Part shown: piece after piece, positions 10,634 to 61,700 of the stretch
Position numbering within the stretch: position 1 is the stretch's first letter
How the letters are laid out: every line of letters begins with the position of its first letter
Program-made: the position numbers and the translations under genes
Source: an uncultured euryarchaeote
Lineage (GTDB): Archaea > Thermoplasmatota > Poseidoniia > Poseidoniales > Thalassarchaeaceae
NCBI GenBank assembly: GCA_937911265.1
Contig: CALDRG010000064.1
Coordinates: forward strand, 8,350-72,349
Direction of reading: 5' to 3'
Length of the DNA stretch: 64,000 bases
Notes under the pieces: generated by a model
Databases searched by the model: none
Told to the model about the DNA's origin: nothing
The model's input: the letters and a program-made list of their open reading frames with translations, nothing else

Positions 10634-10668
10634 CACTCACAAAGTGAGAAAAATACGGAGGAAAAAAT

Positions 10669-10977: not shown

Positions 10978-11013
10978 GTCGTTTGGAACTAGGCAGATAA
11001 TGGAGAGTCACAT

Positions 11014-11580: not shown

Positions 11581-11590
11581 GGGGAAAGCA

Positions 11591-31789: not shown

Positions 31790-32992
31790 TCAACTGATTT
31801 CCTTCTCAATTCGACTCTCCAGAGCCGCAGGTGCGGTATTGGTCATGGTGATGTGCTGCGTCCTCCCCCTACCCACCGTCGCGTTCGCAGTCCGCGACTC
31901 AATCAGCCCCAATGTCTCGAGCTCCTTGAGGTGCTTCCAGAAGGTGGTGTAACTGCGGGGTTTGTCCCCGTTCTCCTCGCAGACTAGATTGTACAACTTC
32001 TGGGCATCACCGCTGGAGATCTCGTCCACCCTCTTGAGGCGCCTGCAGATACCGAGGAGGACCAGTTTCTGATGCTTGCCCAGATTGTCGACCTGACTTG
32101 GTTCGACCGAAGCACCCCGTAAGGTGCTGGGTCGTACATCCTCGATTAAGACGTCTCCTCTGCCATCCATCTCGGCGCGTCGAATTGCTGCTTCCAGCAG
32201 TTCGATGGCGAGACGCGCGTCACCTGTCTCAGCGGCGAACCTACCGATCTTGGACAGAGTGTCATCGCCCACCGATCCCGGTTTGCAGGCCTCCTCGTAG
32301 CGCTGCCTAGCGATACCCGTGAGCGCGCGCTCGTCGTATCCGCCCAGCGCCATCATGCTGCTCTCGCCGAGCCGAGAGATAATGGCTGGTTCGAACAACC
32401 TGATTAGGGAAACATCTTGACTCACCAGTATCATCGAGAGCGAGCCCTGCTGGTCCTGACCCTCATCGATTCGGAGCAGTTTGTAGATTAGGTCGCCCTT
32501 GTCGTTGCGAATTAGCACATCTACTTCGTCGAGGGTTAGCAGGAGATGGGTCTTGTGTACCTTGAGGTTACGACGAATAGATTGGATGATCTCGCTCGAG
32601 CTGAAGCCCCGTTCTGGGTGTCCAGAGTCGAGTGAGCGAGCAATCTCCTGCAACACCTGTGAGGCAGTTGGGTGGTTGCGGCAGTTGACATGAGCGAGAA
32701 CTATCTTCCTGCGTCCGTCCAGCATTCGCTGAAGATCTTCTCCGAAGCGACGTGTCATCACCGTCTTGCCCGAACCTACTGGTCCTGTAATGACTGCCCT
32801 GCCACTGACTCCGTCCCCTTCCATTCCACTGAACATCGAAGCGAGCTCACCGAGTTCCTCATCGCGACCGACCAATGCAGGCGGCGTCCAATCGAACGAG
32901 AAAAACATCCCGTTCAGCAGGACCTTGCCCGCTCCTATTCTGTCTAGGTAGTCGACCATTATGTGACTCGTGCTCACATCGTTATTAGACAT
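31790..32992 (-). CDS. cdc6: Orc1/Cdc6 replication initiator
   Basis: LVGRDEEL, Walker A GPVGSGKT, Walker B LTLDEVD, sensor-2 GDARLAIELL, C-terminal winged helix. Confidence 0.9.
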   Translation of the reverse strand: MSNNDVSTSHIMVDYLDRIGAGKVLLNGMFFSFDWTPPALVGRDEELGELASMFSGMEGDGVSGRAVITGPVGSGKTVMTRRFGEDLQRMLDGRRKIVLAHVNCRNHPTASQVLQEIARSLDSGHPERGFSSSEIIQSIRRNLKVHKTHLLLTLDEVDVLIRNDKGDLIYKLLRIDEGQDQQGSLSMILVSQDVSLIRLFEPAIISRLGESSMMALGGYDERALTGIARQRYEEACKPGSVGDDTLSKIGRFAAETGDARLAIELLEAAIRRAEMDGRGDVLIEDVRPSTLRGASVEPSQVDNLGKHQKLVLLGICRRLKRVDEISSGDAQKLYNLVCEENGDKPRSYTTFWKHLKELETLGLIESRTANATVGRGRTQHITMTNTAPAALESRIEKEIS

Positions 32993-38539: not shown

Positions 38540-41236
38540 TCACTCTTCTTCGAGGGATGGCTCGTCTACATCCAAGGAGTCCACTAGATTGGCGGGCAAC
38601 CTAGCAACGAAGATAATCTCGTCTACGTAGCCCGACCTGTCGGCGTTGCGCAGCTCCATGATTCGAGTGCCCTTGGTCACCTTGCCTAGAGTCTCCTTGG
38701 TCTGGCCAGACACCATCCTGATCATCATCCCAGTTGCGGTGAGCATGAATAACTGGTCTTCAAGGTCAGGAATCTGGCGTACGCTGACGATACAGTCATC
38801 ATCACGCAGTGACATCGTGCGCACCCCTTTGGTTCCCCTGTTGGTGCGCCTGTAACCATCCCTCTCTGTGATGACGTCACCTTCTTCGTTGAGGACCTCG
38901 TTGCCCCCGGCGTCCTTCACGATCATCATCTCGCCTGAACCGAGGCGGCTGCGCTTGGCCATTCCATACTTCGAGATAGTCAGAACGCTGGTATCGAAGT
39001 CATCGGTCACAATCATCCCAATCACACTGTCTCCCTTCCGGAGTTTCATCCCGGAGACTCCCTGGCTGACTCTGCCTTGAACTCGAACGATATGGGTGGT
39101 CACTATATCTCCTGAGTTGGAATCGACTCTGGACTTTTCTTCGGCTGGCATGAACCTACAGGCGTTGCCTTGCGCCGACACCAACACGACATGGTCGGCT
39201 TCGGTGGCGGGTCTGACAGTAACCAGCGAATCACCATCTCCCTCGGCGAATCGCAAGGCATACTTCCCATTGCGGTTGATTTTGACGTACTCAGAGAGAC
39301 GACTCTTCTTGATGCGACCGTTCGTAGTGGCGAACATCAGGTAGTTCCCCTCCGGACTCTCGATGAGCTCCCTGCTGAGAGGGAGTATCGAGATTACCCT
39401 CTCCTCTTCGCGGATGCCACCGAGCAGGTTGCGTATGTGAGAGCCTCTGCCGTAGCGGCTGGCAGACGGCGTCTCCCATGCCCTGAGGCCATAGACACGG
39501 CCCATATCGGTGAAAATCAGCAACCTGTCCTTGGAAAAGCAGGTGACTATCTTGGAGGGAGCATCTTCCTCCTTAGTAGCCACCCCCTTGAGTCCCTTCC
39601 CGCCTCTGTTCTGAAGACGGAATGCCTCTACAGGGAGGTGGCGGATGTAGTTGTCCTGAGTCAGTGAGATAACGATGGCCTGCTCGGCGACAAGATCCTC
39701 ACGGTCCATTGACAGAGGCATTGGGTCGATGCTGGAGCGCCGCTCGTCGCCGTGCTTATCGACAACCGCATCAAGCTCGGCGATTATGATGCCGAGGCGT
39801 CGGATTCGGCTATCTAGGATGCCCTCGAAGTCCTTGATAGCCTGCTTCAGTCTCTCCAGTTCATCGGAGACCTCCTGGACGTTTATCTTGGTGAGCTGGT
39901 ACAGGCGCCGCTCGGCTATTGCCTTGGCTTGCTTCTCGGAGAAGTCGAAGCGCTTGATCTTGGGGTATTTCTCGTCGCCCCTCAAGTACTGCTCAAACTG
40001 CTCGCGGGAGTCAGAGTTCCTACCGACTTCGATAATCTCGGTCATCCTCTTCTGAGCCTTCATCAGCCCTTTTAGGATGTGTGCGCGGGCCGCCGCCTTC
40101 TCAAGATCGAATTGTGTGCGTCGCTCGACGATTGACTCCCTATGTCGGACATGCGTGTGCAGGATGGTGCACAGGTCAAGTTGGACCGGTTCGCCCTTTA
40201 GTATGCCCATCATGTTCGCTGAGTAAGACTCTTGCAACCTGCTGGAACGGTAGAGCTGATTCAGCACGGCGTGAGGATCGGCGTTCTGCTTAATCTCAAT
40301 GACAACCCTGATTCCTTCCTTACTGGATTCGTCCCTGATGTCCCTGATGCCCTTGATGATCTCCTTCTGGACGAGCTCGGCTATGCCTTGTAGCATCCCG
40401 GCCTTCTTCACCTGATAGGGGATGGAGTGAACTATCAGTTTCTTGCCCGAGGAGTCATCCTGAACTTCGATGTCTGAGCGGATGTGGAAGCTACCGTGAC
40501 CGGTTCTGTACATGTCGACGATGCCATCTATCCCGTGGATCGTGGCACCCGTAGGGAAGTCTGGCCCCTTGAGGAACTCCATATACTCAAGCGCATCAAT
40601 CTTGGGCGGGTTGTCGAAGCCTATCTTGCGATTTTGCTCGATGACCTTCTCTACATGGAACTTGATTGCCGCGGCGACCTCATTGAGGTTGTGAGGCGGA
40701 ATCTTGGTCGCCATGCCGACGGCTATACCGTCGCTGCCGTTGAGCAGCAAATTAGGTAGGCGAGCCGGCAACACTGACGGCTCTGTCTCTGTGTCGTCGA
40801 AGTTAGGTTCCATGTCAATGGTGTTCTTGTTGATGTCATCCAACATGTGATGCGACATCCGATCGAGGCGACTTTCGGTGTACCTCATAGCAGCAGGAGG
40901 GTCACCATCGATGGAGCCGAAGTTTCCTTGACCGTCGATCAACGGGTACCGTAGGGAGAAGTCCTGAGCCATCCTGACCATGGTTTGGTACAGCGCTTGG
41001 TCACCGTGTGGGTGGTACTTCCCCATCACTTCCCCGACTGAACGAGCAGATTTGCTGTATTTTTTCTCGTGGGTGTGGCCGGCCTGGTGCATCCCCCAGA
41101 GGATACGTCGGTGGACCGGCTTCAACCCGTCCCTAACGTCAGGTAGGGCACGCCCGATGATGACACTCATGGCATAGTTGATGTAACTCTCCTTCATCTC
41201 CTCAGAGATGTCCCTTCGAAGTAGATCCTCTGCCAT
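38540..41236 (-). CDS. gyrA: DNA gyrase subunit A
   Basis: [26 protein letters not shown] with the active-site Tyr region, C-terminal beta-pinwheel repeats, acidic tail. Confidence 0.95.
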
Positions 41237-41245
41237 TCTGATTCC

Positions 41246-43370
<2,125 letters not shown>

Positions 43371-43418: not shown

Positions 43419-44231
43419 ATGCCTCGACCACTCATCTGTGTTACACTGAGAGGGTGCACCGTTGATGAGATGCTGAAGGATGCAGCCATGGCGACTGCTG
43501 CAGGGGCGGATATGGTTGAGGTACGTCTGGACAAGCTTTGGGTTGTAGAGCAGATGCCTGAACCGGATCCCGCAGAGGAGGAAGCGAAGAGGGATGATCG
43601 TAGGCCCAAATACGTCGAGCCTGATTTCATCCCGCAACCACTCGACTCGGTCGACGTGCAGGGGGCGCTTGAGTCACTTAAGCAGGGCATCGACCTACCG
43701 GTAATCCTTACATGCCGCCCAGAGCGCCAGCAGGGCCATTATCCGGGAGAAGAAGGACAACGTATCGAGGTGCTGAGTGCGGCAATCAATAGTGGCGTCA
43801 GTTGGATTGACCTCGAGGTCGATATCGAGTCGAAGGCGCGCAAATCTCTGATGGATGATGCTTCTGGGAAGGCCAAGGTTGTTGCCTCCCTTCACTCCTC
43901 GGAGAATCCTCCCTCGGCTTCGGAGATAATCCACGATGTCGAGGACAACTCTGATGCCGGAGATATCATCAAAATCTGCTACCGGTCATCAGGCCGTCAC
44001 GACGGACTACGTCTGTTTGAGGCAGCGTGGGGTCTCAGGAGCTCAGGAGCTCATTACGCCATCATGGGATTGGGATGGGGCGGCGACTGGACTAGGATTC
44101 ACGCCCCGTTGCTTGAACAGGCCCTAGTATACACCACCATGGACAAGGGACTGCACATCTCGCGACAGGGTAGAATCAACGCCTCGGACCTGCAGACTGC
44201 GTGGCAACTGCTAGAATACGAGACCGCCTAA
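43419..44231 (+). CDS. aroD: 3-dehydroquinate dehydratase, type I
   Basis: PLICVTL...ADMVEVRLD, PVILTCRP, WIDLEVD, matching the type I DHQase barrel pattern. Confidence 0.65.
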   Translation: MPRPLICVTLRGCTVDEMLKDAAMATAAGADMVEVRLDKLWVVEQMPEPDPAEEEAKRDDRRPKYVEPDFIPQPLDSVDVQGALESLKQGIDLPVILTCRPERQQGHYPGEEGQRIEVLSAAINSGVSWIDLEVDIESKARKSLMDDASGKAKVVASLHSSENPPSASEIIHDVEDNSDAGDIIKICYRSSGRHDGLRLFEAAWGLRSSGAHYAIMGLGWGGDWTRIHAPLLEQALVYTTMDKGLHISRQGRINASDLQTAWQLLEYETA

Positions 44232-45121
44232 CCGTCTTGGCTGCGCTCATCGCGCTCACTCTCGAGGTAAGGGACCTGATGCGAATCTTCTTCATCGCCC
44301 AGCCCGGTCGACATGTACTTGCTGTGAATGATAAGAGGGACGATGATGCAAGCTATCGGTAGCGCTGCTATCAGGATGTAGGCGACGAAATTGGGCAGCG
44401 TCGTCCTCTCTTCAACATCGACCAATATCTCGACATTCATGCTGCCTCCGGCGGCCTTTCTATCGGAACTCCTCCCGTTGTCCCAGCCATCGACCACTAG
44501 GTAGTACTGGGGGTCGCCCGAATCGAACCAAGAGACGGAGGACCATGCCGAACCAATCGAGTCTATGGCCACTGAGAATACCTGGCTAGAAACGCTCTCG
44601 TATGCGTGGACATCCCTGAACGGCAGCCACATGGCCAGGTCTCTCCATTCCACTGGTAATTCGTTGACAATTTCCTCTAAATCATCCCACTCTCTAGTTT
44701 CGTAACTTGATGTGTAGCGGTCCCAGTTGGCCTCATTCATCAGGTATACATCGCCAATCGCCCCCATGGTCGGAGCTGACTGTGAATCAGAGCTCAAATA
44801 GAGGCAGAAGGTGTACTGGTAGCCAGGCACCAGTTCCATACTAATCGCATTCGCGCTGTCGTTGTAGACCGTCATATCGGTGCTGAAGTCGCGATTTAGG
44901 GGCTTCAACATCGCATTCTCGCCCCAAAATCCACCATCTTCGATCGAGTGCTCTTCAAAGTACTGATCTATCCCTGGAGAGTTTTCGGCCGGAACGTCGC
45001 CACAGTTCGCCTCTGCAGATGCAATCGGAGCTGCGATTATTGTAACGAACACAGCGACTACGGGCAGGAGCAGACAGAGGTTGATTGCGGCCGCAGTGAG
45101 TTTCTTAGGGCCGTCTTCCAC
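44228..45121 (-). CDS. Membrane-anchored extracellular protein (N-terminal signal/TM, C-terminal TM, acidic cytoplasmic tail)
   Basis: Hydrophobic N- and C-terminal segments; 2-nt gap to the upstream metalloprotease gene, so likely cotranscribed. Confidence 0.5.
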   Translation of the reverse strand: MEDGPKKLTAAAINLCLLLPVVAVFVTIIAAPIASAEANCGDVPAENSPGIDQYFEEHSIEDGGFWGENAMLKPLNRDFSTDMTVYNDSANAISMELVPGYQYTFCLYLSSDSQSAPTMGAIGDVYLMNEANWDRYTSSYETREWDDLEEIVNELPVEWRDLAMWLPFRDVHAYESVSSQVFSVAIDSIGSAWSSVSWFDSGDPQYYLVVDGWDNGRSSDRKAAGGSMNVEILVDVEERTTLPNFVAYILIAALPIACIIVPLIIHSKYMSTGLGDEEDSHQVPYLESERDERSQDG

Positions 45122-45123
45122 GC

Positions 45124-48100
45124 TCAGCGCCTCCTCGTCCTGATAGGTCGGATGTATCCGGACTCCTTGTTTCTTCGCTCTTGGACAGTCAGGTACTTCG
45201 GTTGTGGAGGTGGCTTGTGCTGGTCCATACCAGGCAGGCCTCCTTCGACTTCAACTTCAGTGACGTCGTAGGTCTCGAGCATCTCTCCGGCATCCAACTC
45301 ATCCTCGTCTTTCTCTCGCATAATCAACCACCCAAGTACGAGGACGGCCGCAACCAAGGCTAGCAGCCCCGCGCTCTCCCTGTTAGGAACTAGGTCACTC
45401 CATGTCAGGTCGGCCAACGACTTCGGCTTGTCATCTTCCTGCACCGAGAGGACGGTGATTACGTACTCCTCAGAGGAGCAGACGCCCACGCCGTCGCACA
45501 CCTGCATCAGGATTCTAATTTCGCCAGGCTGGTTCCAAGTCTGATTACCCCACAACCAGTCGTTTCGAGTGTCGCCGTCGAGGTCGGTGTCTTGCAGCGC
45601 GTTGAGGTCCCATTTCACTGTCAGTGGACCTGTTAGGGGCCGGTCACGGTCATTGGCCGGATTGCCGTCCCCGTCACTGTCGTCAGACTGGTCCAGATCT
45701 ATCCACGCCTCTATGCCGTCGTCTAGGTCCGCATCTTTGGCGCTGGAGTTCAGCAGCACGATGTCGCCCATCGCGACGTAGTCGGCAGAGATTGGATCAT
45801 CGGTGAGAATCACAGGAGCCCTAGAGACGTGAACGGTCAGAGTGGTCGTGTTTGTCTCACCACCCTCAAAACCGTCAACCACCGTCAGGGTCACGACATA
45901 GGTGCCGGGAATCTCGTAGGCGTGCCACACTACCGGTCCGCTGACCGGCGAACTGGCGTCGCCGAAGTCCCAGATCCACGAGACTATGCCGTTCCACTCC
46001 GATGAATCGGAATCCGTTGATGTCCGGCCCACAAACAGTGGGTCAGCATCGTAACTGTCAGAACCATCGAACCTGATTGGGTCGCCGGGAGCCACGAATG
46101 CGCCCCCTCCAGCAGTATGGGGGACCTGCCAGACGACACCGTCCTCGGTCTGAGGGATTTCGCTCATCACAGACCCGTTGACGCTCGGGCAACTGAATTC
46201 AAGTCCTGGGACAGGGAGTGGGTTGGCTATCCTAATCGAGTATGACTTGGTGGCCGAGGAGAGCCCCCTGTCGTCGATTATGGTGAGGCTGATGGTGTAC
46301 AGTCCGGGCTCGAGGAAGGTGTGGCTCACTGAGGAGACGTTGTACACAGGGTCATCGAAGTCTGAGATTTCCCACTTAGTCTGCAGCAGTGCCGTGTCAC
46401 CATCTGGGTCGAACGACTCGCTAACGAATGTGTAGGTCGTATCCACATCTCCATCCTGCGGTCTCGCGAAAACTGCGACTGGTCTCTGATTAAGCACTTG
46501 TACCTGAAGCAGGGCCACGGAGGTGTTACCATCATCATCGGTGACTTCGAGAGTGACGTTTTTCATTCCCGGCTCAAGCCATCCAGCGCTGGGATTCTGC
46601 AGGATGGACTCGGTCGCGGAAAAGTCGGAAGTCAGTGCCATCCCAGAGCCGTCCAGATTGACCCCCTCCTCGAAGAACCAGCTATACTCGACAATCATCC
46701 CATCTGAGTCCTCAAAGACTGTCGGCATGGTCAGTGGAGTCAACGTGTATGTCTGCAGTGGTTCGTCAAAGATCTGTTTCGGTAAACGATTCAGGACCTT
46801 GATGTAAATGGATTGCTCGACGATGTGAATACCGTCATCGACTGTCAAAATCAGAGTGTAGATAATTCCGTCAGCGCTGCCGTCCACCCATGAGTGCCCA
46901 GCCTCGCCCACTCCTTGGCCTCCTTCGTTCTGCCCGTCGCCCCAGTCCCAGGTGAATACCAACTCATCTAGAGGGACGTTGTCTGAGGTCCCTCTGGCTG
47001 AGAATTGCACTCTCTGATCAGTGAGGAGCACCAGTTCGTCGGTGATGATGACTCCATCCACAGAGATCTCGGGGATTGGGTCGGAGATGTCGCTCACCGA
47101 GATGTTCCACGATTGAGAATCCGAGTAGTATCCTCCTTGGTCCTGTACCACTAGGACAATCTGGTAGTCTCCGGCATTGAGGTACGAGTGGGTCGGATTC
47201 TTCAATCCGGACGAGTTGTTGTCTCCGAGGTCCCAGATGTATCCTACAGGAGTGTCGTTATGGCTGAATGTACCATTCAACTGACCGAAGCCCCACGAGT
47301 CGTACCCCGAACCGAACACGGTCACGGGTAGCCATGTCTGAGTGACTGGCGTGGACATCGAACCGGATGCAACAGGCTCCATGTTAGCCAGAGCCATGGG
47401 CAGTGAGAACGCTTGGTCCACAATCTCCCCTGTAACGTCGCGGATGCGGATGCCGTAGGTCCAGTCTCCCGATGAAGGGGGAGTGAACCAGACGCTTCTC
47501 GGAGACGGAACACTATTGCCGGCGGTGATGTCGAACACCACCGAGTCAGACACGCTGTTGTTGACATAGGCCTCGATGGTCACTTCAAGAATTTCGAAGA
47601 ATGCGTTGGACTCCACATCGAGATCGATGCGAACGCTGTCGTCCAACCCGTCCTCGTCCCTGTCGAAGGAGGTAATCGTGTCTATCGAGACTTCCGCGGG
47701 GTCGGTAATCAGACCAGCATGTACAGTGAGAGAGGCTGTTGGGTACGATCCAGTGGTGATGCCGCAGGACACATAGTTGTAGTCGCAGTCAGTGACCATG
47801 GATTCGTACCATGTGAGCAGCCAGACCTCGTCAGTGGTGTTTCCAAATCCGTGCACTAGCCCGGTTCCGGCCCCTGTTCCGGAGTCTATCCGCAGGCTAC
47901 TCATCGACCAAGTCCCCGTGTCTGCGTCGCGAGCCATTATGGCGCCTTCAAAGCCGAATTGAGTTGGTTGCACCATCATATTGAGCGGAGCGCCAGAGCC
48001 CTGAGCGAACTTGTACGCTCTCATGCCCCAGCCCTCTATATCTTGACTGGAGCTGTTCCAATCGTTGACCCACTGATCGTTGTATCCACTCATCTGGGCC

Positions 48101-49239
48101 TTGCAGATATAGGCGGCAATGCATCCTGAGGTGAGATCGAGGTTGGTAAATCCGAAGGCCCCTTGGGCGCTGTCGAGGGACACTGCCGCACTGAAGTTAG
48201 CAAAGATCTCACTCATCGTCGTCCCAATAGAGGTCGCACCTGTCTCTGGATTTTGAGCCAGATTCTCAATAGCTACTCCGCCGGTAGCCGTATCGGCGAC
48301 CAGTCTTTGGATTGCGGCTCCACCACCGAGCTTGTCGGCTAGGTACATCAGGAACATGAAACCGGCGCCATAGTCGGCTATTCTGCCGTTCCACCACCGC
48401 ACGCTGAGGCTGCTGTCCTGCGACCATTCATTGGCGTGTCCTGTCAGCGTGCTGGTGACTCCGAAGGCTAGGTACGCTGCCATGTCCGCCGCTCCCTCAT
48501 CGATCCACAGGTACTCGTACGGATCCCTCGCGTTATGCAGCAGATGCTCGAACTCATGAGCAAGGATAGTGTTCCTCGAACTCATGTCATCGACGTCGAC
48601 GAACACTGATTCCCTAACCGACGAGATACCGGGTGAGAAGTATCCGCCGGTCCCACCTGATCCGTCGATGGCAATCAGGACAATCTCGATTTGGCAGTTG
48701 TTGTCGACATCGGGCGGACTGCCGAAATAGGTCGTGTCCGTGGGGTAAATCGTCGATTCCCAGGTTGAGGCAATATCATTGAGCGTGGTAGACGAGATAA
48801 TCTGGCCGTTCTCAACCAGAATAGCAGAATTGGCAGATACCTTCTGCGCCGTGACAGAGACGCTGCCACTGGCCGTGGAGACGTTGCCAGTATCGCCTTG
48901 ACTCCATGCATTCTCGCAAGAACGTACTGTGGATCTCGAGTTCAGGTAGCCCGGAGAGAATGGGAGCACCAGCCCAGGATAACCAGCTTCCCTCCATTCG
49001 ATCTTCAGGTGACCGGTAGCCGAGAATATCGGTTCGAATTCATCTGTGAACAGGTACCGCTTGCCCTCAATAGAGGGGTCGAACTCCGAGAGGTCGCCCG
49101 ACATGACCTCAGTCATCGATTCAGTGGATTGCGGCTCTGCGAGAGTCAAAGGAGAAAGACTGGCGAACAGCATCGTCAGGACCAGCATGACAGATGCTCT
49201 GCGGGACGTTGGTGCATTGTGGGGGGGCATGTTCAACAC
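45124..49239 (-). CDS. Giant membrane-anchored extracellular zinc metalloprotease (HEFEH, MA clan, M6/InhA-like) with multiple PKD-like domains
   Basis: Signal peptide; HEFEHLLHN...IDEGAAD gluzincin-like motif; at least 3 PKD signatures (WDWGDGQ, WDLGDNNSS...GDYQIVLVVQD, WDFGDASS...GTYVVTLTVVD); C-terminal TM plus basic tail. Confidence 0.6.
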   Translation of the reverse strand: MLNMPPHNAPTSRRASVMLVLTMLFASLSPLTLAEPQSTESMTEVMSGDLSEFDPSIEGKRYLFTDEFEPIFSATGHLKIEWREAGYPGLVLPFSPGYLNSRSTVRSCENAWSQGDTGNVSTASGSVSVTAQKVSANSAILVENGQIISSTTLNDIASTWESTIYPTDTTYFGSPPDVDNNCQIEIVLIAIDGSGGTGGYFSPGISSVRESVFVDVDDMSSRNTILAHEFEHLLHNARDPYEYLWIDEGAADMAAYLAFGVTSTLTGHANEWSQDSSLSVRWWNGRIADYGAGFMFLMYLADKLGGGAAIQRLVADTATGGVAIENLAQNPETGATSIGTTMSEIFANFSAAVSLDSAQGAFGFTNLDLTSGCIAAYICKAQMSGYNDQWVNDWNSSSQDIEGWGMRAYKFAQGSGAPLNMMVQPTQFGFEGAIMARDADTGTWSMSSLRIDSGTGAGTGLVHGFGNTTDEVWLLTWYESMVTDCDYNYVSCGITTGSYPTASLTVHAGLITDPAEVSIDTITSFDRDEDGLDDSVRIDLDVESNAFFEILEVTIEAYVNNSVSDSVVFDITAGNSVPSPRSVWFTPPSSGDWTYGIRIRDVTGEIVDQAFSLPMALANMEPVASGSMSTPVTQTWLPVTVFGSGYDSWGFGQLNGTFSHNDTPVGYIWDLGDNNSSGLKNPTHSYLNAGDYQIVLVVQDQGGYYSDSQSWNISVSDISDPIPEISVDGVIITDELVLLTDQRVQFSARGTSDNVPLDELVFTWDWGDGQNEGGQGVGEAGHSWVDGSADGIIYTLILTVDDGIHIVEQSIYIKVLNRLPKQIFDEPLQTYTLTPLTMPTVFEDSDGMIVEYSWFFEEGVNLDGSGMALTSDFSATESILQNPSAGWLEPGMKNVTLEVTDDDGNTSVALLQVQVLNQRPVAVFARPQDGDVDTTYTFVSESFDPDGDTALLQTKWEISDFDDPVYNVSSVSHTFLEPGLYTISLTIIDDRGLSSATKSYSIRIANPLPVPGLEFSCPSVNGSVMSEIPQTEDGVVWQVPHTAGGGAFVAPGDPIRFDGSDSYDADPLFVGRTSTDSDSSEWNGIVSWIWDFGDASSPVSGPVVWHAYEIPGTYVVTLTVVDGFEGGETNTTTLTVHVSRAPVILTDDPISADYVAMGDIVLLNSSAKDADLDDGIEAWIDLDQSDDSDGDGNPANDRDRPLTGPLTVKWDLNALQDTDLDGDTRNDWLWGNQTWNQPGEIRILMQVCDGVGVCSSEEYVITVLSVQEDDKPKSLADLTWSDLVPNRESAGLLALVAAVLVLGWLIMREKDEDELDAGEMLETYDVTEVEVEGGLPGMDQHKPPPQPKYLTVQERRNKESGYIRPIRTRRR

Positions 49240-49288
49240 TCCGTGTTGTTTTCAGTCGCAATCCGCTCAAAGACCTATTTTAACATCG

Positions 49289-50305
49289 ATGGAGCATCGT
49301 TCGTACATGAAACAGCACGTTACAGCGCCAGCACTGGCTGTCGCAATGCTGCTCGCCGTCCTCACGTGCAGCCTGCCAGCGTCTGCCCAAGCGCAATCGG
49401 AAACAGTAGAATTAGTTCTGATTTCCTCTCATCAGCACGATTCGGAAGCTTTCACACAGGGGCTCGAGATGCATGATGGATCACTCTACGAAAGCACTGG
49501 ACTGTACGGACACTCCAGTCTCAGAGAGATCGATCCATTGAGCGGTCAGGTAATCCGTCAGATCGAACTTGACGAGTCGCTGTTCGCAGAAGGCATTACG
49601 GTCGTCGGCAACAGTATCGTGATGCTGACTTGGAAGGAGGGCGTAGCACTGGTCTTCGATATCGAATCGTTGACCGTGATCGCCAATCACACCTACTCGG
49701 GAGAGGGCTGGGGGCTGTGCTACGACGGAACCCACCTAGTGATGTCGAACGGGACTTCCGAATTAGCCTTCAGGAACCCGGAAGACTTCACGTTGGTTTC
49801 AATCCTGAGGGTGACTGACCAGGGCAGCGAAGTGAGCCTGCTCAACGAGCTTGAGTGCGTCGGTCAGACGGTGTACGCCAACGTATGGGGCAGCGATTCC
49901 ATCATCGCCATCGACAAGAGCACCGGTGAGGTCGGACTGACTATCGACGCCTCGATGCTCGCTGAGAACGAATCAGACGGCTACAACAACGTCCTGAACG
50001 GGATTGCCTATGTCTCAGAGCAGGATGCATTCCTCATCACAGGCAAGAACTGGACATCCATGCATCTGGTGTTGTTCGGAGATACTCAGGATACTCAGGA
50101 GGAAGAGCCTCTAGAATCTCTGGCCATATCCATCCTGAAGTCGATTTGGCCAGTTCTGCTGATTGCCGTTCTGGTGGTCTTCCTGAGTTCGCTCCGCTTC
50201 TTGAGTACGATTATGCAGTTCCTCATACTGATGGTAGTTAAGCGGCAGAGTGAACAGCCGCCGATGTCCAGCGAGGAGGAGCAAGAGGCGGGTGAGAGAC
50301 AGTGA
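49289..50305 (+). CDS. Glutaminyl-peptide cyclotransferase (beta-propeller type), secreted with C-terminal TM anchor
   Basis: Signal peptide; HDSEAFTQGLEMHDGSLYESTGLYGHSSLREIDPLSGQV is the plant/bacterial glutamine cyclotransferase signature; start moved downstream of the ORF-track start to remove overlap with the protease gene. Confidence 0.7.
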   Translation: MEHRSYMKQHVTAPALAVAMLLAVLTCSLPASAQAQSETVELVLISSHQHDSEAFTQGLEMHDGSLYESTGLYGHSSLREIDPLSGQVIRQIELDESLFAEGITVVGNSIVMLTWKEGVALVFDIESLTVIANHTYSGEGWGLCYDGTHLVMSNGTSELAFRNPEDFTLVSILRVTDQGSEVSLLNELECVGQTVYANVWGSDSIIAIDKSTGEVGLTIDASMLAENESDGYNNVLNGIAYVSEQDAFLITGKNWTSMHLVLFGDTQDTQEEEPLESLAISILKSIWPVLLIAVLVVFLSSLRFLSTIMQFLILMVVKRQSEQPPMSSEEEQEAGERQ

Positions 50306-51051
50306 GCGAGGCGAACGGCGACGAGTTCGAGGATTACAGTGCCATGGAACTGTGGCTACACGATCTCTCTGTAGACTCAGCTACCAGAGTGGCTGGGGCG
50401 CTGATGATATTCATCGGGAGCCTTCTCGGAGTCCTTCTCGGAATCGCTCTAATCTCGACGAATGTGGGTGAGATCCTAGCAGGGCAATTGGATGGTTCGG
50501 ACGGGTTGGCTGATGTCGACGGAATCGTCAGTACCGCACTAGAGGACAGCACCACAGGAGGCGAACCAGTAGAGGGAGTCAGAGTGAGCATACTCGATTC
50601 CGATGAACTTGAGATCGGTCACGATTTCACTGACTCCGGAGGTCGGTTTTCAATAGATGACGTGCCCAGACGGACATCCACCTTGTTAGTTGATCATCCT
50701 GGGAACCGAACCGTCAGGATCATCCTCGTACCGGGTGACCACGCGCAGATTTCCGTCTCACTGATGCTTGGCGACGGACTCGACGAGTACGATATGTCCG
50801 GAGAGAGCCATCTCAGTGAGTCGGTACTAATCGGCTCCACCATAGCAGCCCTCACCCTTTTGGCCGGGCTGGCTGGCATGGTAGGGGGTCTCGAGGCTTA
50901 CCGAGGCGACCGCTACCAGCGAACCTGGTGGCTGTCGTTCTTCGGACTCTGGAGCCGAGGCATGCTGTTCGTAGGCCCTATGTTCATTCTATTGGGGATG
51001 GGCATGGCCCATCTCGCGAGGGATCAGTTCACCGACCACAGAGAGGAATAA
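50302..51051 (+). CDS. Membrane protein with extracytoplasmic carboxypeptidase-regulatory-like beta-sandwich domain
   Basis: TM1, then GVRVSILDSDELEIGHDFTDSGGRFSIDDVP (CarbopepD_reg-like), then 2 C-terminal TM helices; ATGA overlap with the upstream gene. Confidence 0.45.
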   Translation: MSEANGDEFEDYSAMELWLHDLSVDSATRVAGALMIFIGSLLGVLLGIALISTNVGEILAGQLDGSDGLADVDGIVSTALEDSTTGGEPVEGVRVSILDSDELEIGHDFTDSGGRFSIDDVPRRTSTLLVDHPGNRTVRIILVPGDHAQISVSLMLGDGLDEYDMSGESHLSESVLIGSTIAALTLLAGLAGMVGGLEAYRGDRYQRTWWLSFFGLWSRGMLFVGPMFILLGMGMAHLARDQFTDHREE

Positions 51052-51065
51052 CTCGAGGTTTGCCA

Positions 51066-52406
51066 GTGTATCTGATTACTATCGAAGGAGGCGATGGCAG
51101 CGGCAAGGGCCTCGCTACGAAGGTGATTTCGGAAGTGCTGGACAAGGAGTTCTCGTTCACTTCTGTCGAGGCCACTGGAGAGCCGCGCAGGGAACACCCT
51201 CTAGGCCGTCTAGCCATCGAATCGGTCCGCAAGCAGACAATGACTCCCAAGCAGGAGGCCGGACTGTTCGCCGCCGATAGGGTCGACCACTCGCACGGCT
51301 GGATACTGCCCCGTCTGGAGGAGGGTAGGGCAGTGGTCAGCGAGAGGAACATTCACTCTTCATTGGTATACCAAGGAGTTGTGGGAGGGCTCGGTGTCGA
51401 CAGAGTGGCGCACATGAACTCGGCGGCACTAGTCCCTGACCTCTGCATCTGGGTTGACTGCGACCCCGAGGTGGCACTGAGGAGAATCAAGCGAGGCACA
51501 CTGAGAGCGTTAACCGAGAAGGAGGAGTACTTCGAGACCTCAGAACTGCAACAGAGAATCAGAGAAGGTTACACTTCGTTGCTATCCGGTGAGATAGAGA
51601 TGCCCACGCCGTTCGACATGGGCGCGGTGATTGGCCCCATTCTGAACGAGGGGACTGAACGGGAGTTCCGGCACGAACTGACCCGCAGAATAAGGAAGTT
51701 CGTACACTCTAGGCCAAAGCCGCTAAATGTCAGGATGGAGGTCGTCGAGAGAAACTTCCTGCGCAAGTTGTTGAGGGCCTCAAAGGGACAGGCCACACTC
51801 TCTGGAATCGGAGTGGAACCGTTCAGCGAGAGTTTGAATTGGCCTGACGGTTCAGCGCCATGGCGGATTCTCAGGGACGCCCAATCGGAGCACGATGCTG
51901 TACTGGAGGAGATAAGCGAAGAATCTAGGGTCGATGTGCCTCTCAGCATCTTTTCCCATTCCATGTCTTCGATATGCGGCACACTCGCCCTGTTGCCTTC
52001 AGCCGATATCTCCGAACTGCGCCAGGCACTCGGGCCGGTGAGAGCTGTCTCCGAGCGCCACACCCAGAGGATAGTCAAGTTCCTCCACGAGCGAACCGAT
52101 TGGGTGCACAAGCACAAGGCACTCGTGGGCAGGGACGCTCCGAGGTCTCACTTGAAGCAGCGTTATCGCATGTTGGGAGTGACGATACTCACCATCTGGC
52201 CACTCAGAGATGCGATTCGTCGATGGATGTCAGATAATCCCGAGGCTCATCTCAGGTTCGCGATGGGTCAAATTGTCAGGTCGGGCGAGCATCCGTCCGC
52301 GGTTAGGGATTCACTGGAGAGGATAGCGCTGTTGAGATTAGGAACGGAAAACTCCTCTCTTCCCGCCGGAGCGAGCGGCCTCGTATCTTGGTGGCAGGGC
52401 AAGTAG
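51066..52406 (+). CDS. Thymidylate-kinase-like P-loop kinase with about 250-aa C-terminal extension
   Basis: ITIEGGDGSGKG P-loop, DRV...SSLVYQG (the DRY/AYQG region of Tmk), DLCIWVDCDPEVALRRIKRG lid-like region; putative GTG start immediately after the upstream stop; C-terminal 250 aa of unknown function. Confidence 0.5.
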   Translation: MYLITIEGGDGSGKGLATKVISEVLDKEFSFTSVEATGEPRREHPLGRLAIESVRKQTMTPKQEAGLFAADRVDHSHGWILPRLEEGRAVVSERNIHSSLVYQGVVGGLGVDRVAHMNSAALVPDLCIWVDCDPEVALRRIKRGTLRALTEKEEYFETSELQQRIREGYTSLLSGEIEMPTPFDMGAVIGPILNEGTEREFRHELTRRIRKFVHSRPKPLNVRMEVVERNFLRKLLRASKGQATLSGIGVEPFSESLNWPDGSAPWRILRDAQSEHDAVLEEISEESRVDVPLSIFSHSMSSICGTLALLPSADISELRQALGPVRAVSERHTQRIVKFLHERTDWVHKHKALVGRDAPRSHLKQRYRMLGVTILTIWPLRDAIRRWMSDNPEAHLRFAMGQIVRSGEHPSAVRDSLERIALLRLGTENSSLPAGASGLVSWWQGK

Positions 52407-58758: not shown

Positions 58759-61700
58759 TCAGAGGGCGATGTTCTCTCCGCATACAGGGCACTTAGCGGC
58801 CTGGATATCGAGTGGAGCTTCGAACCTGCTGTCGCACTCAGGGCAAATGATTGGCTTGTTCAACTGTAAATCGGGAGGGCGGGATGCCTCCTCGGGAATT
58901 TTGACATCTGGCTCTGGAGTAGGAATCGGTATAGGTGGAAGTTCAAGGACGTCAACTATCTGACTCCGATTCTGTCGGCGTCCCCGACGTCCCTCGGCAC
59001 CTTCGTTGACCTCTACCAACTCGACCAACTGGACATCATCTTCCTCGCTCGTCTTCACAGCGATGTCTGTGTCATCGACAACGTCTACCACATCTTCTTC
59101 GAGCAGCACGGTGCCCGCCGCCTGGAAATTTCTTCGTCCCCTCATCCACCTGATGCCCCTAGCGGATAGAGTGATCAGGATGACGGTGCACAGAAGTAGA
59201 ATGGTGATGGCGAATCCACCTAGGAGGATGTTGAAGTTCTGCTTATCTAGGCCAAGAGCGTGCCTCAGTTCATCGATCAGGGATCCACCATCGCCGTTCG
59301 GGTCGTTGTCATCTACGACAGCCCTGATTAGCCAACCACTGGCAGAGGTATGGATGAAAACAGTCTCACTGCTGGCTGGAGAACGATCCATGAGGTAGAG
59401 GTTCCCGAGGTTGAGGCGGTTGGATAATCCAAGCCACCCTTCTTCAGCATCTATGATGCCAAACCTAACCTGCGGTCCGGTTGGTCCGACTACATCGAAG
59501 AACACCTGCACGCCTCTGTCAACCTCTTGCATCACGATGGAACTCAGTCCCCTTGAGGGGTAGGTGCGAGTCAGGTTGTCGATTGCTTCAAACGACGAAT
59601 CAGCCACTATGGCAATCATCACCGACTCGTGACCATCGCCTTCTCTCCACGCTGCCGTAATCCGCTCTTCCCCATTGATGATTTGGACTTTCATGACCGC
59701 GAGGGAAGCCTCGTCGCCAACCGTCTTCTTGAAGGTCCACGAAGACTGTTCAATGAGACCGTGTGCGTACCACAGGCCATATCTCTCTATCCCCGTTGAG
59801 TCACTTCTTGTGGACTGATACAGGAGGTGAGCTCCATCGTCCTCCCCGAACTCAATATCCAACGAACTTGCGGCCCCCGGAATCAGGTCTAACTCACCAA
59901 TGATGTTCGGAGTAAGCGTCCAGTCTGACGATTTGGTCGGGTTGTCCGCGTGCAGAAGGAAAACGCTGGTTTGATCGCCGAATGTACCTCCGGTGAACAT
60001 GTCTCTGTGATAGCCTGAGACTAGAACCTCCTCGTCATCGACGTCTATGTCAATGCCCCAGTACTTGCCATCCGAAAGCAAGAGGGGGGCCATCAGATCC
60101 TGTATCGGCGACATCTGGCAGGTGGCGTCTATGGCGGAGTAGCTCAGGGTCTGGAGGAAGTAACCAGAGGAATCGAGAAACCTCCGAGTCCAGACGATGT
60201 GCGCCCAACCGTCCTCGGTGCTCCAGGTTGCTATGTCGCCAGCCCACATCTCATCCAGTACGTTAGTGCAGGCTGTAGTACCCTTGTTGGAGTTCAACCT
60301 GTATAGCGACAGCATTCCTCCGTTGTTGGTGATGATTATACCCTCATCGTCGAGGTCGATGACCTTGATCGGTACCTCTCCTGCATCGAAGTTCATCGCG
60401 CGGGCACCTGATAGGGTGGACTCGTCCACCAGCACTGTCGTCTCGACCTGATTGTTGCTCCAATCTAGGTCGGCTAATCCGGAGCCACTCAGAGTGATTC
60501 TGACATCGAGAGGGCCGGACTGATTGGCCCGATGAGCGAAGGATAGCTGCGACGCACCCTGGCCGATAACTAGGGAGATTGCAGTAGATGACACCAGCTC
60601 CCAGCCCAGATTGTTGCGAATCTCTAGTGTGGCTTCGACGCTGGCGGCATCACTGGAGCCGAGATTATCGACTCTGGCTGTGATGAGGAACTGCTCGAGG
60701 GGCCGCGGTATCGCTGGCTCTGTCCTAACTGCCCCCTCTCGGAAGGCCAAGTCTATGCCTTGTGGTCTCTGGATGACTGGGAAGGTGATTGTCTGTCCAT
60801 TATCTTCCTCATTCAGCTCCTCAATCGAATCGGAAGGATCCAGGGAAACCATCACCACTTTGTCGCCGACGGTGGTCGGATTCCAGTAGAGTACCACTTC
60901 GATGATGTCGCCGCTGTCGATGCTGGGCAACACCATCTCGTCCTTGCGCGAACCGTCCTCATACAGTGCGATTGCGAGATTCGATGCCGCCAAATCACCA
61001 TCGTTACGAATCTCAGTTCGGATTTCTAGGAATGTGTTGACATATGTTTGAGTGAGATGAATCCCGTACTCTTCCACTGAGAGGCCGGTCCTGAACATCA
61101 GATTAGGGGCCGGTGGGTCGTTATCCACCTCGACGGTCCGACGTATCTCTTCGGAGTAGATTCCGTCTCCGCTAACCATCCTAGCGGAGAGGCGGTAAAA
61201 TCCGTCATCCACATCCTCGGTGCTCCAAGTCACAGACCAATCACCGCTACCGCTACCGCTTCCTCCGAAGGTCTGAGCAGTTCCCCAGGGGTCAGTGCCT
61301 AGCCTCCACTGCGCAGTTCCTCCGTTCACCGAATCCCAAGTACCGAACACGTTGACGTTCCCGGAGACAGGGCTCTGTCCGCTAGGGCCTCCCATAGTGA
61401 CGGCGACCAAGCCAACCTCATGCTTCTGCTCGATTACATCGCTCCACTGTCCAAATTCGTTCTTTGCCTGAGCCTCGATTATCACCTCAAGTATGTTGAT
61501 CTCATCCTCGGTGAACTCGGGTAAAGTGAATGGAGTTGTCCAGTTGGAGGTTCCTTGGGCTGCGTGCCAGTCAAGCAACACCACCTCTCTCTTCGGCTCG
61601 CCTTCGGGCCTATGTGTGTATGAGATTCTGACTGCTATCTCGTCGATACTGCCATTCGTCTCCGCATCCTCGTCTATGTGGCCTCTTGCACTGTAGGTTT

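Follow-up and report, generated by a model that had tools for sequence, protein, structure and literature searches.

Predicted membrane-anchored glutaminyl cyclases of two unrelated folds beside an M30-like protease in a core genomic block of Poseidoniales

In Bacteroidetes, a membrane-associated glutaminyl cyclase (QC) stabilises exported proteins, and QCs of animal type and plant type are split by clade (PMC5837995, PMC10653852). Deletion of the QC is lethal in P. gingivalis (PMC10653852). In this Q-rule system, which includes PgQC, TfQC and the plant-type QCs of Flavobacteriia, the cyclase is extracytoplasmic and tethered to the cytoplasmic membrane, and the locus of Poseidoniales described here is predicted to resemble it in this respect. 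In both groups, moreover, two unrelated QC folds, known or predicted, are divided between clades, one branch having type II and the other type I (PMC5837995, PMC7948796, PMC10653852), and the bacteroidal type II QCs have an Asp zinc ligand and Trp/Phe pocket residues in common with the M28 proteins of Marine Group IIa (MGIIa). Unlike its bacteroidal counterpart, the system of Poseidoniales is archaeal, is predicted to be anchored by a C-terminal transmembrane (TM) helix instead of an N-terminal lipid, and has folds that replace each other at one genomic position. Furthermore, a heuristic reading of cleavage sites in four exported families gives no sign of a Q-rule.

Two further groups of enzymes are close to the products of this locus. 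The type I QCs of Carica papaya (2faw/2iwa), Zymomonas mobilis (3nol), Xanthomonas (3mbr) and Myxococcus (3nok) align over their whole catalytic domain with the QC of our window, down to E 5e-50, and all four proposed catalytic residues are common to them, including the Gln at the Q24 position. By comparison, the window QC is archaeal, carries about 80 additional aa at its C-terminus, comprising an acidic linker and then a hydrophobic anchor, diverges faster than its neighbour genes (to 35% identity) and undergoes lateral allele exchange. MEROPS family M30 (hyicolysin; lugdulysin, PDB 7bb8) shares with the window protease the HExxH motif, the downstream Glu ligand, the catalytic Tyr and the fold. 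However, the window protease is only about 20% identical and has no Peptidase_M30 match at E<=5. It is 1371 aa long, with 4-5 PKD repeats and a C-terminal membrane anchor in addition to two beta-sandwich domains, and an orphan bitopic protein accompanies it in every case.

Poseidoniales, which belong to the most abundant archaea of the plankton, are still uncultured. Their role in marine protein turnover has been inferred largely from peptidase inventories. Our literature searches returned nothing relevant on archaeal or Marine Group II (MGII) QCs, and no paper containing the word lugdulysin. In this study, we analysed one stretch of 64 kb (hereafter the window) together with flanks of up to 10 kb from the same syntenic block.

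A protease unit in an origin-proximal core block

The region is an origin-proximal core block (Cdc6, gyrAB, aroD ... dTMP kinase) that is syntenic across the order Poseidoniales. An earlier note on this DNA had labelled it a surface proteolysis island. This label is wrong: GC content is even across the window (0.52-0.59) and the flanks consist of core genes (ATP synthase, SMC, Cdc6, gyrAB, aroA/aroD, SufBCD), so that a genomic island is ruled out. We would instead describe the locus as two divergently transcribed surface-protein units within an ancient core block of these Marine Group II archaea. Its gene structure, the folds and families of its products, their catalytic residues, the synteny and the swap at the QC position are established. 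All three open reading frames noted earlier were confirmed at their coordinates, those of the protease and its partner as given in Table 1 and the third at 49046-50305 (+).

Table 1. Features of the locus, in window coordinates (a slash marks the predicted cleavage site)
Feature	Position	Strand	Basis
Bitopic partner, 297 aa	44228..45121	-	ORF list, hydropathy
M30-like zinc metalloprotease, membrane-anchored, PKD repeats, 1371 aa	45124..49239	-	ORF list, Pfam, PDB, alignments
Protease C-terminal TM anchor, aa 1288-1306	45322..45378	-	hydropathy, KD19 = 2.16
PKD repeat region, ~aa 650-1140, 4-5 PKD units	45820..47292	-	Pfam, PDB sequences, motifs
Two beta-sandwich domains behind the catalytic domain, ~aa 370-620	47380..48132	-	
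M30-like gluzincin catalytic domain, ~aa 110-365	48145..48912	-	
Catalytic Tyr Y290 of protease	48370-48372	-	
Third zinc ligand E248 of protease	48496-48498	-	
HEFEH of protease	48544-48558	-	
Protease signal peptide (predicted), aa 1-34 (...SPLTLA/EPQSTE)	49138..49239	-	hydropathy and heuristic -3/-1 cleavage rule
Conserved element TATTTTAACATCGATGGAGCATCGTTCGTAC between the divergent genes, immediately before the QC ATG	49276..49306	.	comparison of ~70 loci
Type I (beta-propeller, plant/bacterial-type) glutaminyl cyclase, 332 aa	49307..50305	+	PF05096, PDB, residue mapping
QC signal peptide, aa 1-27 (...LPASA/QAQSE)	within 49307..50305	+	
QC catalytic domain, ~aa 36-255	49412-50071	+	
QC acidic linker, then C-terminal hydrophobic anchor, ~aa 269-311	50111-50239	+	
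249-aa membrane protein, extracellular CarboxypepD_reg-like beta-sandwich between TM segments	50302..51051	+	PF13620 E=2.4e-7
dTMP kinase with ~250-aa C-terminal extension	51048..52406 (start approximate)	+	PF02223 E=3.8e-29, TIGR00041 above cutoff, synteny

In agreement with the HEFEH metalloprotease that had been proposed, the protein of 1371 aa belongs to the lugdulysin-like (M30) gluzincins as a divergent member, and it has PKD repeats as well as a C-terminal anchor. HEFEH occurs only once (aa 228-232) and is followed by IDEGAAD, which contains E248. Residues H228, E229, H232, E248 and Y290 are invariant in our alignment and correspond to E242, the NEALS Glu and Y315 of lugdulysin. The motif is retained in 81 of the 84 sequences compared (the window and 83 loci). 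A MEROPS classification and a check of the zincin fold, both suggested at the outset, yielded an M30 fold, whereas Pfam gave no match for the catalytic domain at E<=5, Peptidase_M30 (PF10460) included. This model was touched only by a distant bacterial homologue (P0038, E=1.4e-4, below cutoff). Hence, the enzyme is best named M30-like or placed in a new subfamily.

At least three PKD signatures had been noted in this protein, and they are substantiated by matches to PKD_4 (E=1.8e-42, in four stretches) and PKD (E=1.9e-27) in Pfam, by five WDxGD-like motifs (at 669, 764, 854, 956 and 1090) and by similarity to the PKD domains of ColH among PDB sequences. The C-terminal TM anchor expected from the earlier reading is likewise found as a hydrophobic helix, beyond which lies a predicted cytoplasmic tail of 65 aa with basic and acidic residues. 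Translation may alternatively start at an ATG at 49230. Altogether, the first unit would encode a type-I-membrane-anchored M30-like zinc endopeptidase, spaced off the membrane by its beta-sandwich and PKD domains. The window also holds a second giant surface protease, an S8 subtilase (58759-63528).

The partner gene starts 2 nt past the protease stop, and its product has hydrophobic segments at both termini, as anticipated for a cotranscribed bitopic protein. Its layout comprises a signal peptide or N-terminal TM segment, an ectodomain of about 200 aa, a C-terminal TM segment and a short tail with a conserved VPYL motif. The partner is a lineage-restricted orphan family, and homology to the beta-sandwich of the protease was rejected (hhalign probability 0.2%). 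A model of the partner, of modest confidence (pLDDT 67), bears a structural resemblance to the GOLD-domain cargo receptors of the p24/TMED family; there is no sequence similarity to them, and beta-sandwich matches of this sort are generic. We regard this GOLD-likeness as a lead, not a classification. Besides the protease, the first unit would provide this lineage-specific bitopic protein, whose GOLD-like ectodomain might serve an adaptor, regulatory or chaperone role.

The type I cyclase, its promoter region and its operon

The assignment of the divergent gene to the plant/bacterial-type QCs holds firmly against the family model. Pfam Glu_cyclase_2 (PF05096) aligns with the window protein from profile position 6 to 247 of 249 (E=6e-86; 288 bits, cutoff 22.3), and the PDB sequences 3nol (E=4.7e-50), 3mbr, 3nok and 2faw align over about 216 residues, the weakest at 7.5e-36. 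No glutaminyl cyclase model of NCBIfam was matched by either QC type found at this locus. Mapped on the 2faw alignment, Q51, E95, N180 and K247 correspond to Q24, E69, N155 and K225, the proposed catalytic residues of papaya QC (PMC5837995). These residues are intact in the window and invariant in 74/74 orthologues; their absence had been named earlier as a refuting condition. Both the signal peptide and the C-terminal anchor postulated for this protein are predicted, the anchor being above threshold in 72 of the 74 type I QCs and just under it in the remaining two (1.53 and 1.54). The gene is real, but the 419-aa reading frame first given for it is over-extended. The true start is the ATG at 49307 (MKQHVTAP...). 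A conserved TATA-containing element lies just upstream of it, and the starts of orthologues agree; 49046-49306 overlaps the 5' end of the protease gene and the intergenic promoter.

This TATTTTAACATCGATGGAGCATCGTTCGTAC element hardly varies among about 70 loci, including those whose QC proteins have just 35% identity. It is also present 5' of the M28 gene of locus L077, and MGIIa loci carry a related TATTTAAG...TTCATACATG form. One exact copy exists in the window, the sole other match being a site with three mismatches within a coding region. A known RNA was ruled out, as the element had no match to Rfam at E<=1. It probably represents a TATA box together with the region where an mRNA with a short leader, or none, is initiated. 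This promoter function is a prediction, and the near-palindromic TATA (TATTTTAA box) may serve both divergent units.

Downstream, the QC stop overlaps by 4 nt the co-directional gene of the 249-aa CarboxypepD_reg-like protein (CPDreg), for which PF13620 is below cutoff in the window and called in relatives. The CPDreg gene follows the QC gene or the M28 gene in essentially all loci, and its product is the conserved operon partner of either QC type. A housekeeping dTMP kinase gene is packed tightly after these two surface-protein genes. The QC gene itself diverges much faster than its neighbours (35-40% versus 55-70% identity, MAFFT pairwise), which could also mean a relaxed or shifting function. 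In addition, the QC position shows turnover within type I, with allele exchange, lateral between lineages, in the L024 clade.

Two folds at the cyclase position

A type I QC is divergent from the protease in 76 of 80 species-representative loci of Thalassarchaeaceae (MGIIb). The other four comprise three truncated loci and L077, which has an M28 gene. M28 genes occupy the same position in L001-L003, L084-L086 and 80 metagenome loci, with the protease upstream in 57/57 and the CPDreg/TMK genes downstream in 70/70. In Poseidoniaceae (MGIIa) and one MGIIb lineage, the QC position encodes an M28-fold protein, and this protein bears the signatures of bacteroidal type II QCs. Type I and M28 proteins alike have a signal peptide and are anchored C-terminally, and their genes have related promoters and are followed by the same genes. 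Among about 160 loci, this position was never occupied by a gene of a third type.

The swap might nevertheless be coincidental, the MGIIa protein being an ordinary extracellular aminopeptidase at a position that merely tolerates varied surface-enzyme genes. The M28 protein matches PF04389 (E=1e-28), its NCBI name is 'M28 family peptidase', and MGII surveys count such proteins as extracellular aminopeptidases (PMC6336850, PMC6864105). Moreover, M28 QCs and aminopeptidases have their active-site residues in common (PMC5837995), so that a QC activity of the MGIIa protein is predicted from subfamily signatures and from the swap itself. The turnover within type I would also fit a permissive position. 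We consider a coincidence unlikely, since both occupants have the same topology and flanks, no third gene type occurs, and the M28 sequences are themselves QC-like. With a family profile of these M28 proteins, bacteroidal type II QCs rank first (eight QCs or orthologues, E 1.7e-35 to 3e-25), followed by aminopeptidases (4.5e-17) and animal QCs (5e-13 or weaker), a gap of about 55-60 bits between bacteroidal QCs and aminopeptidases.

Reported discriminators of M28-fold QCs against aminopeptidases are the lack of Asn or Asp after the Zn-binding Asp, Trp in place of Tyr before the Zn-binding His, and an aromatic residue at -4 (PMC7948796); discriminating positions are also given in PMC5837995. 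In our set, Gly or Ala follows the Zn-binding Asp in 115/120 proteins (never Asn or Asp in those), Trp precedes the Zn-binding His in 118/120, Phe or Trp stands at -4, and DDH is invariant. All 120 have E-D instead of E-E, as at PgAsp183; this Asp is the zinc ligand specific to bacteroidal enzymes, where hQC has Glu202. Three positions that discriminate QCs from aminopeptidases are QC-like in 96-100% of the 120 sequences. The motifs GAxD, E-D and WHT are present, with D158, E190, D191 and H314 invariant in alignment A3. Equally invariant there are the equivalents of the proton-relay carboxylates E201, D248 and D305 of hQC, namely E190, D224 (DMxG) and D282 (DDH), the last of which we take to be diagnostic for QC. 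An N-terminal, signal-peptide-like h-region and a C-terminal hydrophobic anchor were found in 113/113 M28 proteins, with no N-terminal lipoprotein anchor in this set. Some members carry the JGI label glutaminyl-peptide cyclotransferase, and NCBIfam returned only aminopeptidase matches far below cutoff. From these features, we regard the M28 proteins encoded here as probable glutaminyl cyclases.

The M28 protein of L077, whose flanks are those of MGIIb, is 44-47% identical to its MGIIa counterparts, equal to the divergence of the flanking genes (42-48%). The type II form is probably ancestral at this position, and the presence of a membrane-anchored QC of one or the other fold appears universal at this locus throughout Poseidoniales.

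Proposed role of the ecto-cyclase

The earlier note suggested the adjacent protease as one possible capping substrate of the QC, and our data do not sustain this claim. A cyclase serving as dedicated maturation factor for the protease and/or its partner would cap their N-termini (Glu in this case) so that the surface protease survives amid its own proteolysis. The divergent adjacency is kept in every locus examined, a short conserved intergenic promoter region is common to both units, and in the clade of the window the protease (LTLA/EPQ) and the partner (IASA/EAN) are both predicted to begin with Glu. QCs, however, use Glu poorly unless the pH is acidic. Furthermore, the proposed check of neighbouring mature N-termini, which predicts Glu in the clade of the window, does not bear the model out across orthologues: according to our crude heuristic cleavage-site predictor, the mature protease starts with Gln in 0/81 and with Glu in only 24/81 (Ser, Asp, Thr, Gly or Val elsewhere), and the partner starts with Gln in 3/76, so that Gln is missing or infrequent at +1, a site whose residue varies. 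In addition, the conserved block also holds gyrAB, aroD and the dTMP kinase gene, hence the adjacency reflects order-wide core synteny, and the QC shares its operon with the CPDreg and dTMP kinase genes, not with the protease. Finally, in loci L068 and L069 the protease no longer has its second zinc-binding His, but the QC is retained. Altogether, a dedicated role is decidedly unlikely.

We also considered that the QC acts on peptides released by surface proteases, yielding pyroglutamyl peptides that would be protected from the aminopeptidases of competitors before uptake, or that would serve as signal or osmolyte precursors. Poseidoniales have been described as extracellular protein degraders (PMC6336850, PMC6864105), and the predicted orientation of the QC places its active site outside the cell beside surface proteases, of which the window encodes two giant ones, the M30-like enzyme and the S8 subtilase. 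Yet pyroglutamate would block the organism's own aminopeptidases as well, unless a pyroglutamyl peptidase is present, and the known roles of prokaryotic QCs concern exported proteins (PMC10653852). We find this possibility quite improbable.

Instead, general N-terminal capping of exported proteins is the most likely role of the QC. As we infer enzymatic activity, topology and substrates at this locus, the second unit would begin with an ecto-glutaminyl cyclase whose cleavable signal peptide directs its export and whose C-terminal helix keeps it at the outer face of the cytoplasmic membrane. There it would form pyroglutamate from Gln at the N-termini of proteins or peptides that have just been exported, and so block aminopeptidases that, given the protein-degrading lifestyle, could include those of the organism itself. 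Such a general envelope-maturation enzyme would be analogous to the membrane-associated PgQC of Bacteroidetes. In the four exported families for which +1 residues were read with the heuristic predictor, Gln occurs in 20/73 type I QCs themselves and in 24/113 M28 proteins, besides the low counts given above for protease and partner, as compared with Gln in most SPI substrates under the bacteroidal Q-rule. In the window itself, no more than four proteins appeared as plausible exports in a crude signal-peptide scan.

Throughout the order, the cyclase function seems to be conserved, and it is probably not dedicated to the protease. We lean slightly towards a general envelope-maturation enzyme whose activity is kept by selection at one position via two folds: the type I QC in Thalassarchaeaceae and, in Poseidoniaceae, an unrelated M28-fold protein with type II signatures. 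That analogous enzymes have been exchanged in place speaks for selection on surface pyroglutamylation across the whole order. More tentatively, surface pyroglutamylation may be a conserved, possibly essential step of envelope maturation throughout the order, with an ancestral type II enzyme and type I taking over in Thalassarchaeaceae.

If these proposals are true, a giant surface metalloprotease conserved across the order escapes inventories based on Pfam, since its peptidase domain matches no model there. Likewise, surveys that count M28 proteins as extracellular aminopeptidases may include QCs, which would change the inferred substrate-processing repertoire, and the M28 'aminopeptidases' that MGII surveys list would constitute the first type II glutaminyl cyclases in archaea. 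The swap of two analogous folds would then be a clean natural experiment indicating that pyroglutamate formation is selected on an archaeal surface. Poseidoniales would represent a second, archaeal case of the QC-dependent protein stabilisation so far tied to Bacteroidetes, and the biology of that phylum, with its Q-rule and essential QC, would extend to archaea, a prediction testable by metaproteomics.

A conserved block near core genes

The three genes described in the earlier note, coding for a giant surface metalloprotease, a small membrane partner and a divergent glutaminyl cyclase (QC), were all found as described and where it had placed them. The nearest relatives of the window belong to Candidatus Thalassarchaeum (Marine Group II-b, order Poseidoniales), and it shares 98% identity with a Guaymas MAG over the N-terminal 650 residues of the protease. 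The proposal that these genes form an island is not borne out by their even GC content, their core-gene surroundings or their order-wide synteny. GC content is flat across the region (0.52-0.59), and the neighbours include the A-type ATP synthase operon, SMC, HMG-CoA reductase, eIF2-gamma, Cdc6/Orc1, aroA, gyrA, gyrB, aroD, dTMP kinase and SufBCD. Moreover, the order gyrA-gyrB-aroD-partner-protease, followed divergently by QC-CPDreg-dTMP kinase-DUF2085 (CPDreg being a membrane protein of 249 aa whose ectodomain resembles CarboxypepD_reg), is conserved in 80/80 species-representative genome loci, where the contig is long enough, and is identical on contigs of Poseidoniaceae (MGIIa). The block is probably located near a replication origin, because Cdc6/Orc1 lies ~6 kb from gyrA/gyrB, and this proximity may account for the unusually strong conservation of its synteny throughout Poseidoniales.

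The window also codes for a second giant surface protease. This one combines a Peptidase_S8 subtilase domain (E=4e-50) with CARDB repeats; its N-terminus resembles a signal peptide, and its C-terminus gives a weak zinc-ribbon-like match. Two further large ORFs lack any Pfam match at E<=1e-4; the longer of them codes for several hydrophobic segments.

Features of the window and of the compared loci
Feature	Position	Strand	Description
ORF	372-2060	+	562 aa
ORF	16856-19270	+	804 aa
Copy of element core	18164-18182		3 mismatches; inside the 804-aa ORF
Cdc6/Orc1	31790-32992	-	
gyrA and gyrB	38540-43222	-	
Partner	44228-45121	-	297 aa; starts 2 nt past the protease stop; hydrophobic segment at each end
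Protease	45124-49239	-	1371 aa; single HEFEH at aa 228-232, then IDEGAAD
QC, mechanical ORF	49046-50305	+	Pfam Glu_cyclase_2, E=6e-86
Conserved 31-nt element	49276-49306		TATTTTAACATCGATGGAGCATCGTTCGTAC; directly 5' of the QC ATG
dTMP kinase ORF	50928-52406	+	
S8 protease	58759-63528	-	1589 aa
Protease orthologue, L068/L069	about 10001-11947 of locus		altered zinc motif
QC gene, L024, L028, L029, L011, L023, L025, L027	about 8.9-9.9 kb of each locus		compared for allele replacement

An M30-like protease and its partner

Motif scan, Pfam and hydropathy recovered the zincin motif, PKD repeats and C-terminal TM anchor previously claimed for the protease. PKD_4 matches four stretches (E=1.8e-42), and five WDxGD-like motifs are present. 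The protein begins with a signal-peptide-like segment and ends with a hydrophobic helix (aa 1288-1306) and a charged 65-aa tail. Neither Pfam nor NCBIfam returned a peptidase-domain call, only a sub-threshold flagellinolysin match, and relaxing Pfam to E<=5 still gave no peptidase-domain match. A single-sequence search of PDB sequences weakly matched lugdulysin, a Staphylococcus M30 peptidase (E=2.5e-5); with a profile from 23 homologues, this match rises to E=6.6e-37. Residues H228, E229, H232, E248, Y290 and D179 are invariant in the family, distant bacterial members included. In the alignment, E229 and Y290 correspond to E242 and Y315 of lugdulysin, which are the pair mutated in PDB entry 7bb9, and E248 to the Glu of WLNEALS. 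The protease region thus aligns to a zincin, failure of which the earlier note had named as a refutation, with HExxH, Glu ligand and Tyr all kept, and the profile match and aligned catalytic residues identify the protease as a divergent M30-like gluzincin. After its catalytic domain come two beta-sandwich domains, then 4-5 PKD units, the anchor and a cytoplasmic tail. The mechanical start is a GTG at 49239; the true one may be an ATG at 49230, three codons further in, which has GGAG ~10 nt before it.

The catalytic motif is retained in 81/84 sequences (window plus 83 loci). One of the three exceptions, L065, has an assembly gap at the motif. The other two, L068 and L069 of an MGIIb-O3 lineage, read HEFGLLIHN...WIVEGAAE instead of HEFEHLLHN...WIDEGAAD, so that the second zinc-binding His is gone from an intact ORF. 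Their product is probably a catalytically dead pseudo-protease kept for another (binding or structural) role.

ORF positions and hydropathy agree with the earlier description of the partner as a bitopic protein encoded immediately after the protease. It has no match in Pfam or NCBIfam, and each of its 143 detected homologues is either unnamed or a "hypothetical protein", those with a named organism coming from Poseidoniales, Euryarchaeota or Thermoplasmatota. Against 1.84 billion representative proteins, its profile recovered only 107 clusters. Conserved features comprise a Cys pair (C40/C106), the motifs PVEWRD, WLPFRDVHAYE and DGWDN, a TM helix containing Pro/His/Tyr and a cytoplasmic VPYL motif; a profile comparison with the protease showed no similarity. 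Since its gene always lies downstream of the protease gene, the protein is most likely a physical partner of the protease.

The type I cyclase and its candidate substrates

The mechanical QC ORF (419 aa) is too long. The ATG at 49307 is the true start and yields 332 aa beginning MKQHVTAPALAV, because orthologues begin there, the Pfam domain starts ~15 residues past the signal peptide, and a conserved TATA-containing 31 nt lies upstream. Four type I QCs of solved structure align with this protein, those from Zymomonas (3nol, E=4.7e-50), Xanthomonas (3mbr), Myxococcus (3nok) and papaya (2faw). Residues Q24, E69, N155 and K225 of the papaya enzyme (numbering from PMC5837995) correspond to Q51, E95, N180 and K247, all four invariant in 74/74 orthologues. 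Both the family match and the intact catalytic Q/E/N/K bear out the plant/bacterial type assigned earlier, and by every testable sequence criterion the protein qualifies as a bona fide type I member. New are its C-terminal helix anchor and its archaeal host. The signal peptide and anchor noted before are both predicted in the window, and the anchor passes the hydropathy threshold in 72/74 orthologues, the remaining two falling just below. The catalytic domain is predicted to face outward because a cleavable signal peptide (cleavage between LPASA and QAQSE) is combined with a C-terminal anchor that has Lys/Arg after it. CPDreg starts within the end of QC, the two overlapping by 4 nt, and leads straight into dTMP kinase. 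The operon partners of QC are CPDreg and dTMP kinase, not the protease. The dTMP kinase, translationally packed behind two surface-protein genes, has its kinase domain only at ~aa 50-220; a C-terminal extension of ~250 aa, without family match, is conserved in all relatives (products ~450 aa).

The suggestion that QC caps the protease fared less well. With cleavage sites predicted by h-region plus the -3/-1 rule, a heuristic other than SignalP, the protease has Gln at +1 in 0/81 sequences and Glu in 24/81, including the window clade (elsewhere Ser, Asp, Thr, Gly or Val). The partner has Gln in 3/76 and is not conserved at this position. Hence, no conserved Gln substrate was predicted in this unit (81 + 76 sequences). 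By the same heuristic, Gln at +1 is well above background on the cyclases themselves: 20/73 for type I QC (Glu 16/73) and 24/113 for the M28 proteins discussed below (Val 37, Asp 22, Leu 16). In Bacteroidetes, a Q-rule gives 60-80% Gln at +1 (PMC5837995); no such rule was seen with this predictor in the four exported families available. The evidence argues against a dedicated protease-QC pair, because there is no conserved Gln substrate, the synteny is that of a core block, and in one lineage the active site of the protease is degenerate. In Bacteroidetes, QC protects extracytoplasmic proteins from aminopeptidases (PMC10653852); following this precedent, our best inference is that the QC here would act more generally, as a capping enzyme for exported proteins or for peptides that are released, with cyclase activity, substrates and topology all predicted. 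The gene annotations of the earlier note were correct and are refined here to an M30-like protease and a type I QC with a corrected start.

Two predicted glutaminyl cyclases at one locus

On contigs whose protease is 44-48% identical to that of the window, the divergent gene is not type I QC but a ~400-420-aa Peptidase_M28 match; one of these genomes is placed in Candidatus Poseidoniaceae by NCBI. Among PDB entries, one MGIIa protein (L001) best matches bacteroidal type II QCs of T. forsythia and P. gingivalis (6qro, 6qql), as well as 7cje, 4fuu and orthologues of these from structural genomics. The top eight matches of the family profile all belong to the bacteroidal QC group (E 1.7e-35 to 3e-25); aminopeptidases come next (4.5e-17), and animal QCs rank lower still (5e-13 or weaker). 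We took from PMC7948796 and PMC5837995 the residues separating bacteroidal QCs from M28 aminopeptidases. The archaeal family has Asp in place of hQC Glu202 in 120/120 members, Gly or Ala, never Asn/Asp, after the zinc-binding Asp in 115/120, and, in 118/120, Trp just before the zinc-binding His as well as Phe or Trp at -4; DDH does not vary. Of the full-length members, 113/113 combine an h-region at the N-terminus with a hydrophobic anchor at the C-terminus, a topology like that of type I QC and unlike that of bacteroidal QCs, which are lipoproteins. Judged by these residues, the MGIIa proteins are putative type II QCs of the bacteroidal kind, lipid anchor excepted. The bacteroidal enzymes were described as the first prokaryotic type II QCs (PMC7948796), and we found no report of archaeal ones in the literature; MGII surveys counted M28 proteins as extracellular aminopeptidases, with cyclases unmentioned (PMC6336850, PMC6864105).

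A metagenome scan with the M28 profile gave 80 further loci, tallied together with MGIIa loci L084-L086. Where flanks suffice, the protease lies divergently upstream in 57/57 and CPDreg or dTMP kinase downstream in 70/70; a search out to 8 kb from the M28 gene found no type I QC in this set. Of the genome loci, 76/80 carry type I QC, three are truncated, and a single one, L077, carries M28. This last locus is MGIIb by its flanks, its protease being 63% identical to that of L079 and 48% to MGIIa proteases. Its M28 protein is 44-47% identical to those of MGIIa, a divergence equal to that of its dTMP kinase and protease, and it retains the MGIIb-type upstream element. Because M28 divergence matches that of the neighbours and the MGIIb flanks and element are kept, the data fit a type II gene that would be ancestral, vertically inherited in L077 and later displaced by type I in other MGIIb lineages.

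We compared this element in the intergenic regions of L004-L083, L077, L001-L003 and L084-L086. It is near-invariant in about 70 Thalassarchaeaceae loci, even where QC is only 35% identical, and also precedes the M28 gene of L077; MGIIa loci have a related form, TATTTAAG...TTCATACATG. Within it lie a near-palindromic TATA box and a 5+5 inverted repeat (CGATG-GAG-CATCG). It has no match in Rfam and may be a shared bidirectional core promoter and/or operator. The copy of its core elsewhere in the window probably arose by chance.

No gene of the block diverges faster than QC, which has 35-40% identity where protease, dTMP kinase and CPDreg have 55-70%. L024, L028 and L029 are closest to L023, L025 and L027 by protease (78%) and dTMP kinase (70%), but their QC is only 37% identical to these and 79-83% identical to that of L011, whose flanks reach only 66-74%. 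This incongruence with the flanking genes indicates lateral replacement of QC alleles within an otherwise vertically inherited block.

Two QC folds also segregate by clade between Bacteroidia and Flavobacteriia (PMC5837995), and Poseidoniales parallels this division. Unlike in Bacteroidetes, the swap takes place at one locus, with a related promoter before it and the same genes after it. The interesting result falls outside the framing of the earlier note: an order-wide, in-situ exchange of two analogous, predicted glutaminyl cyclases in abundant marine archaea.
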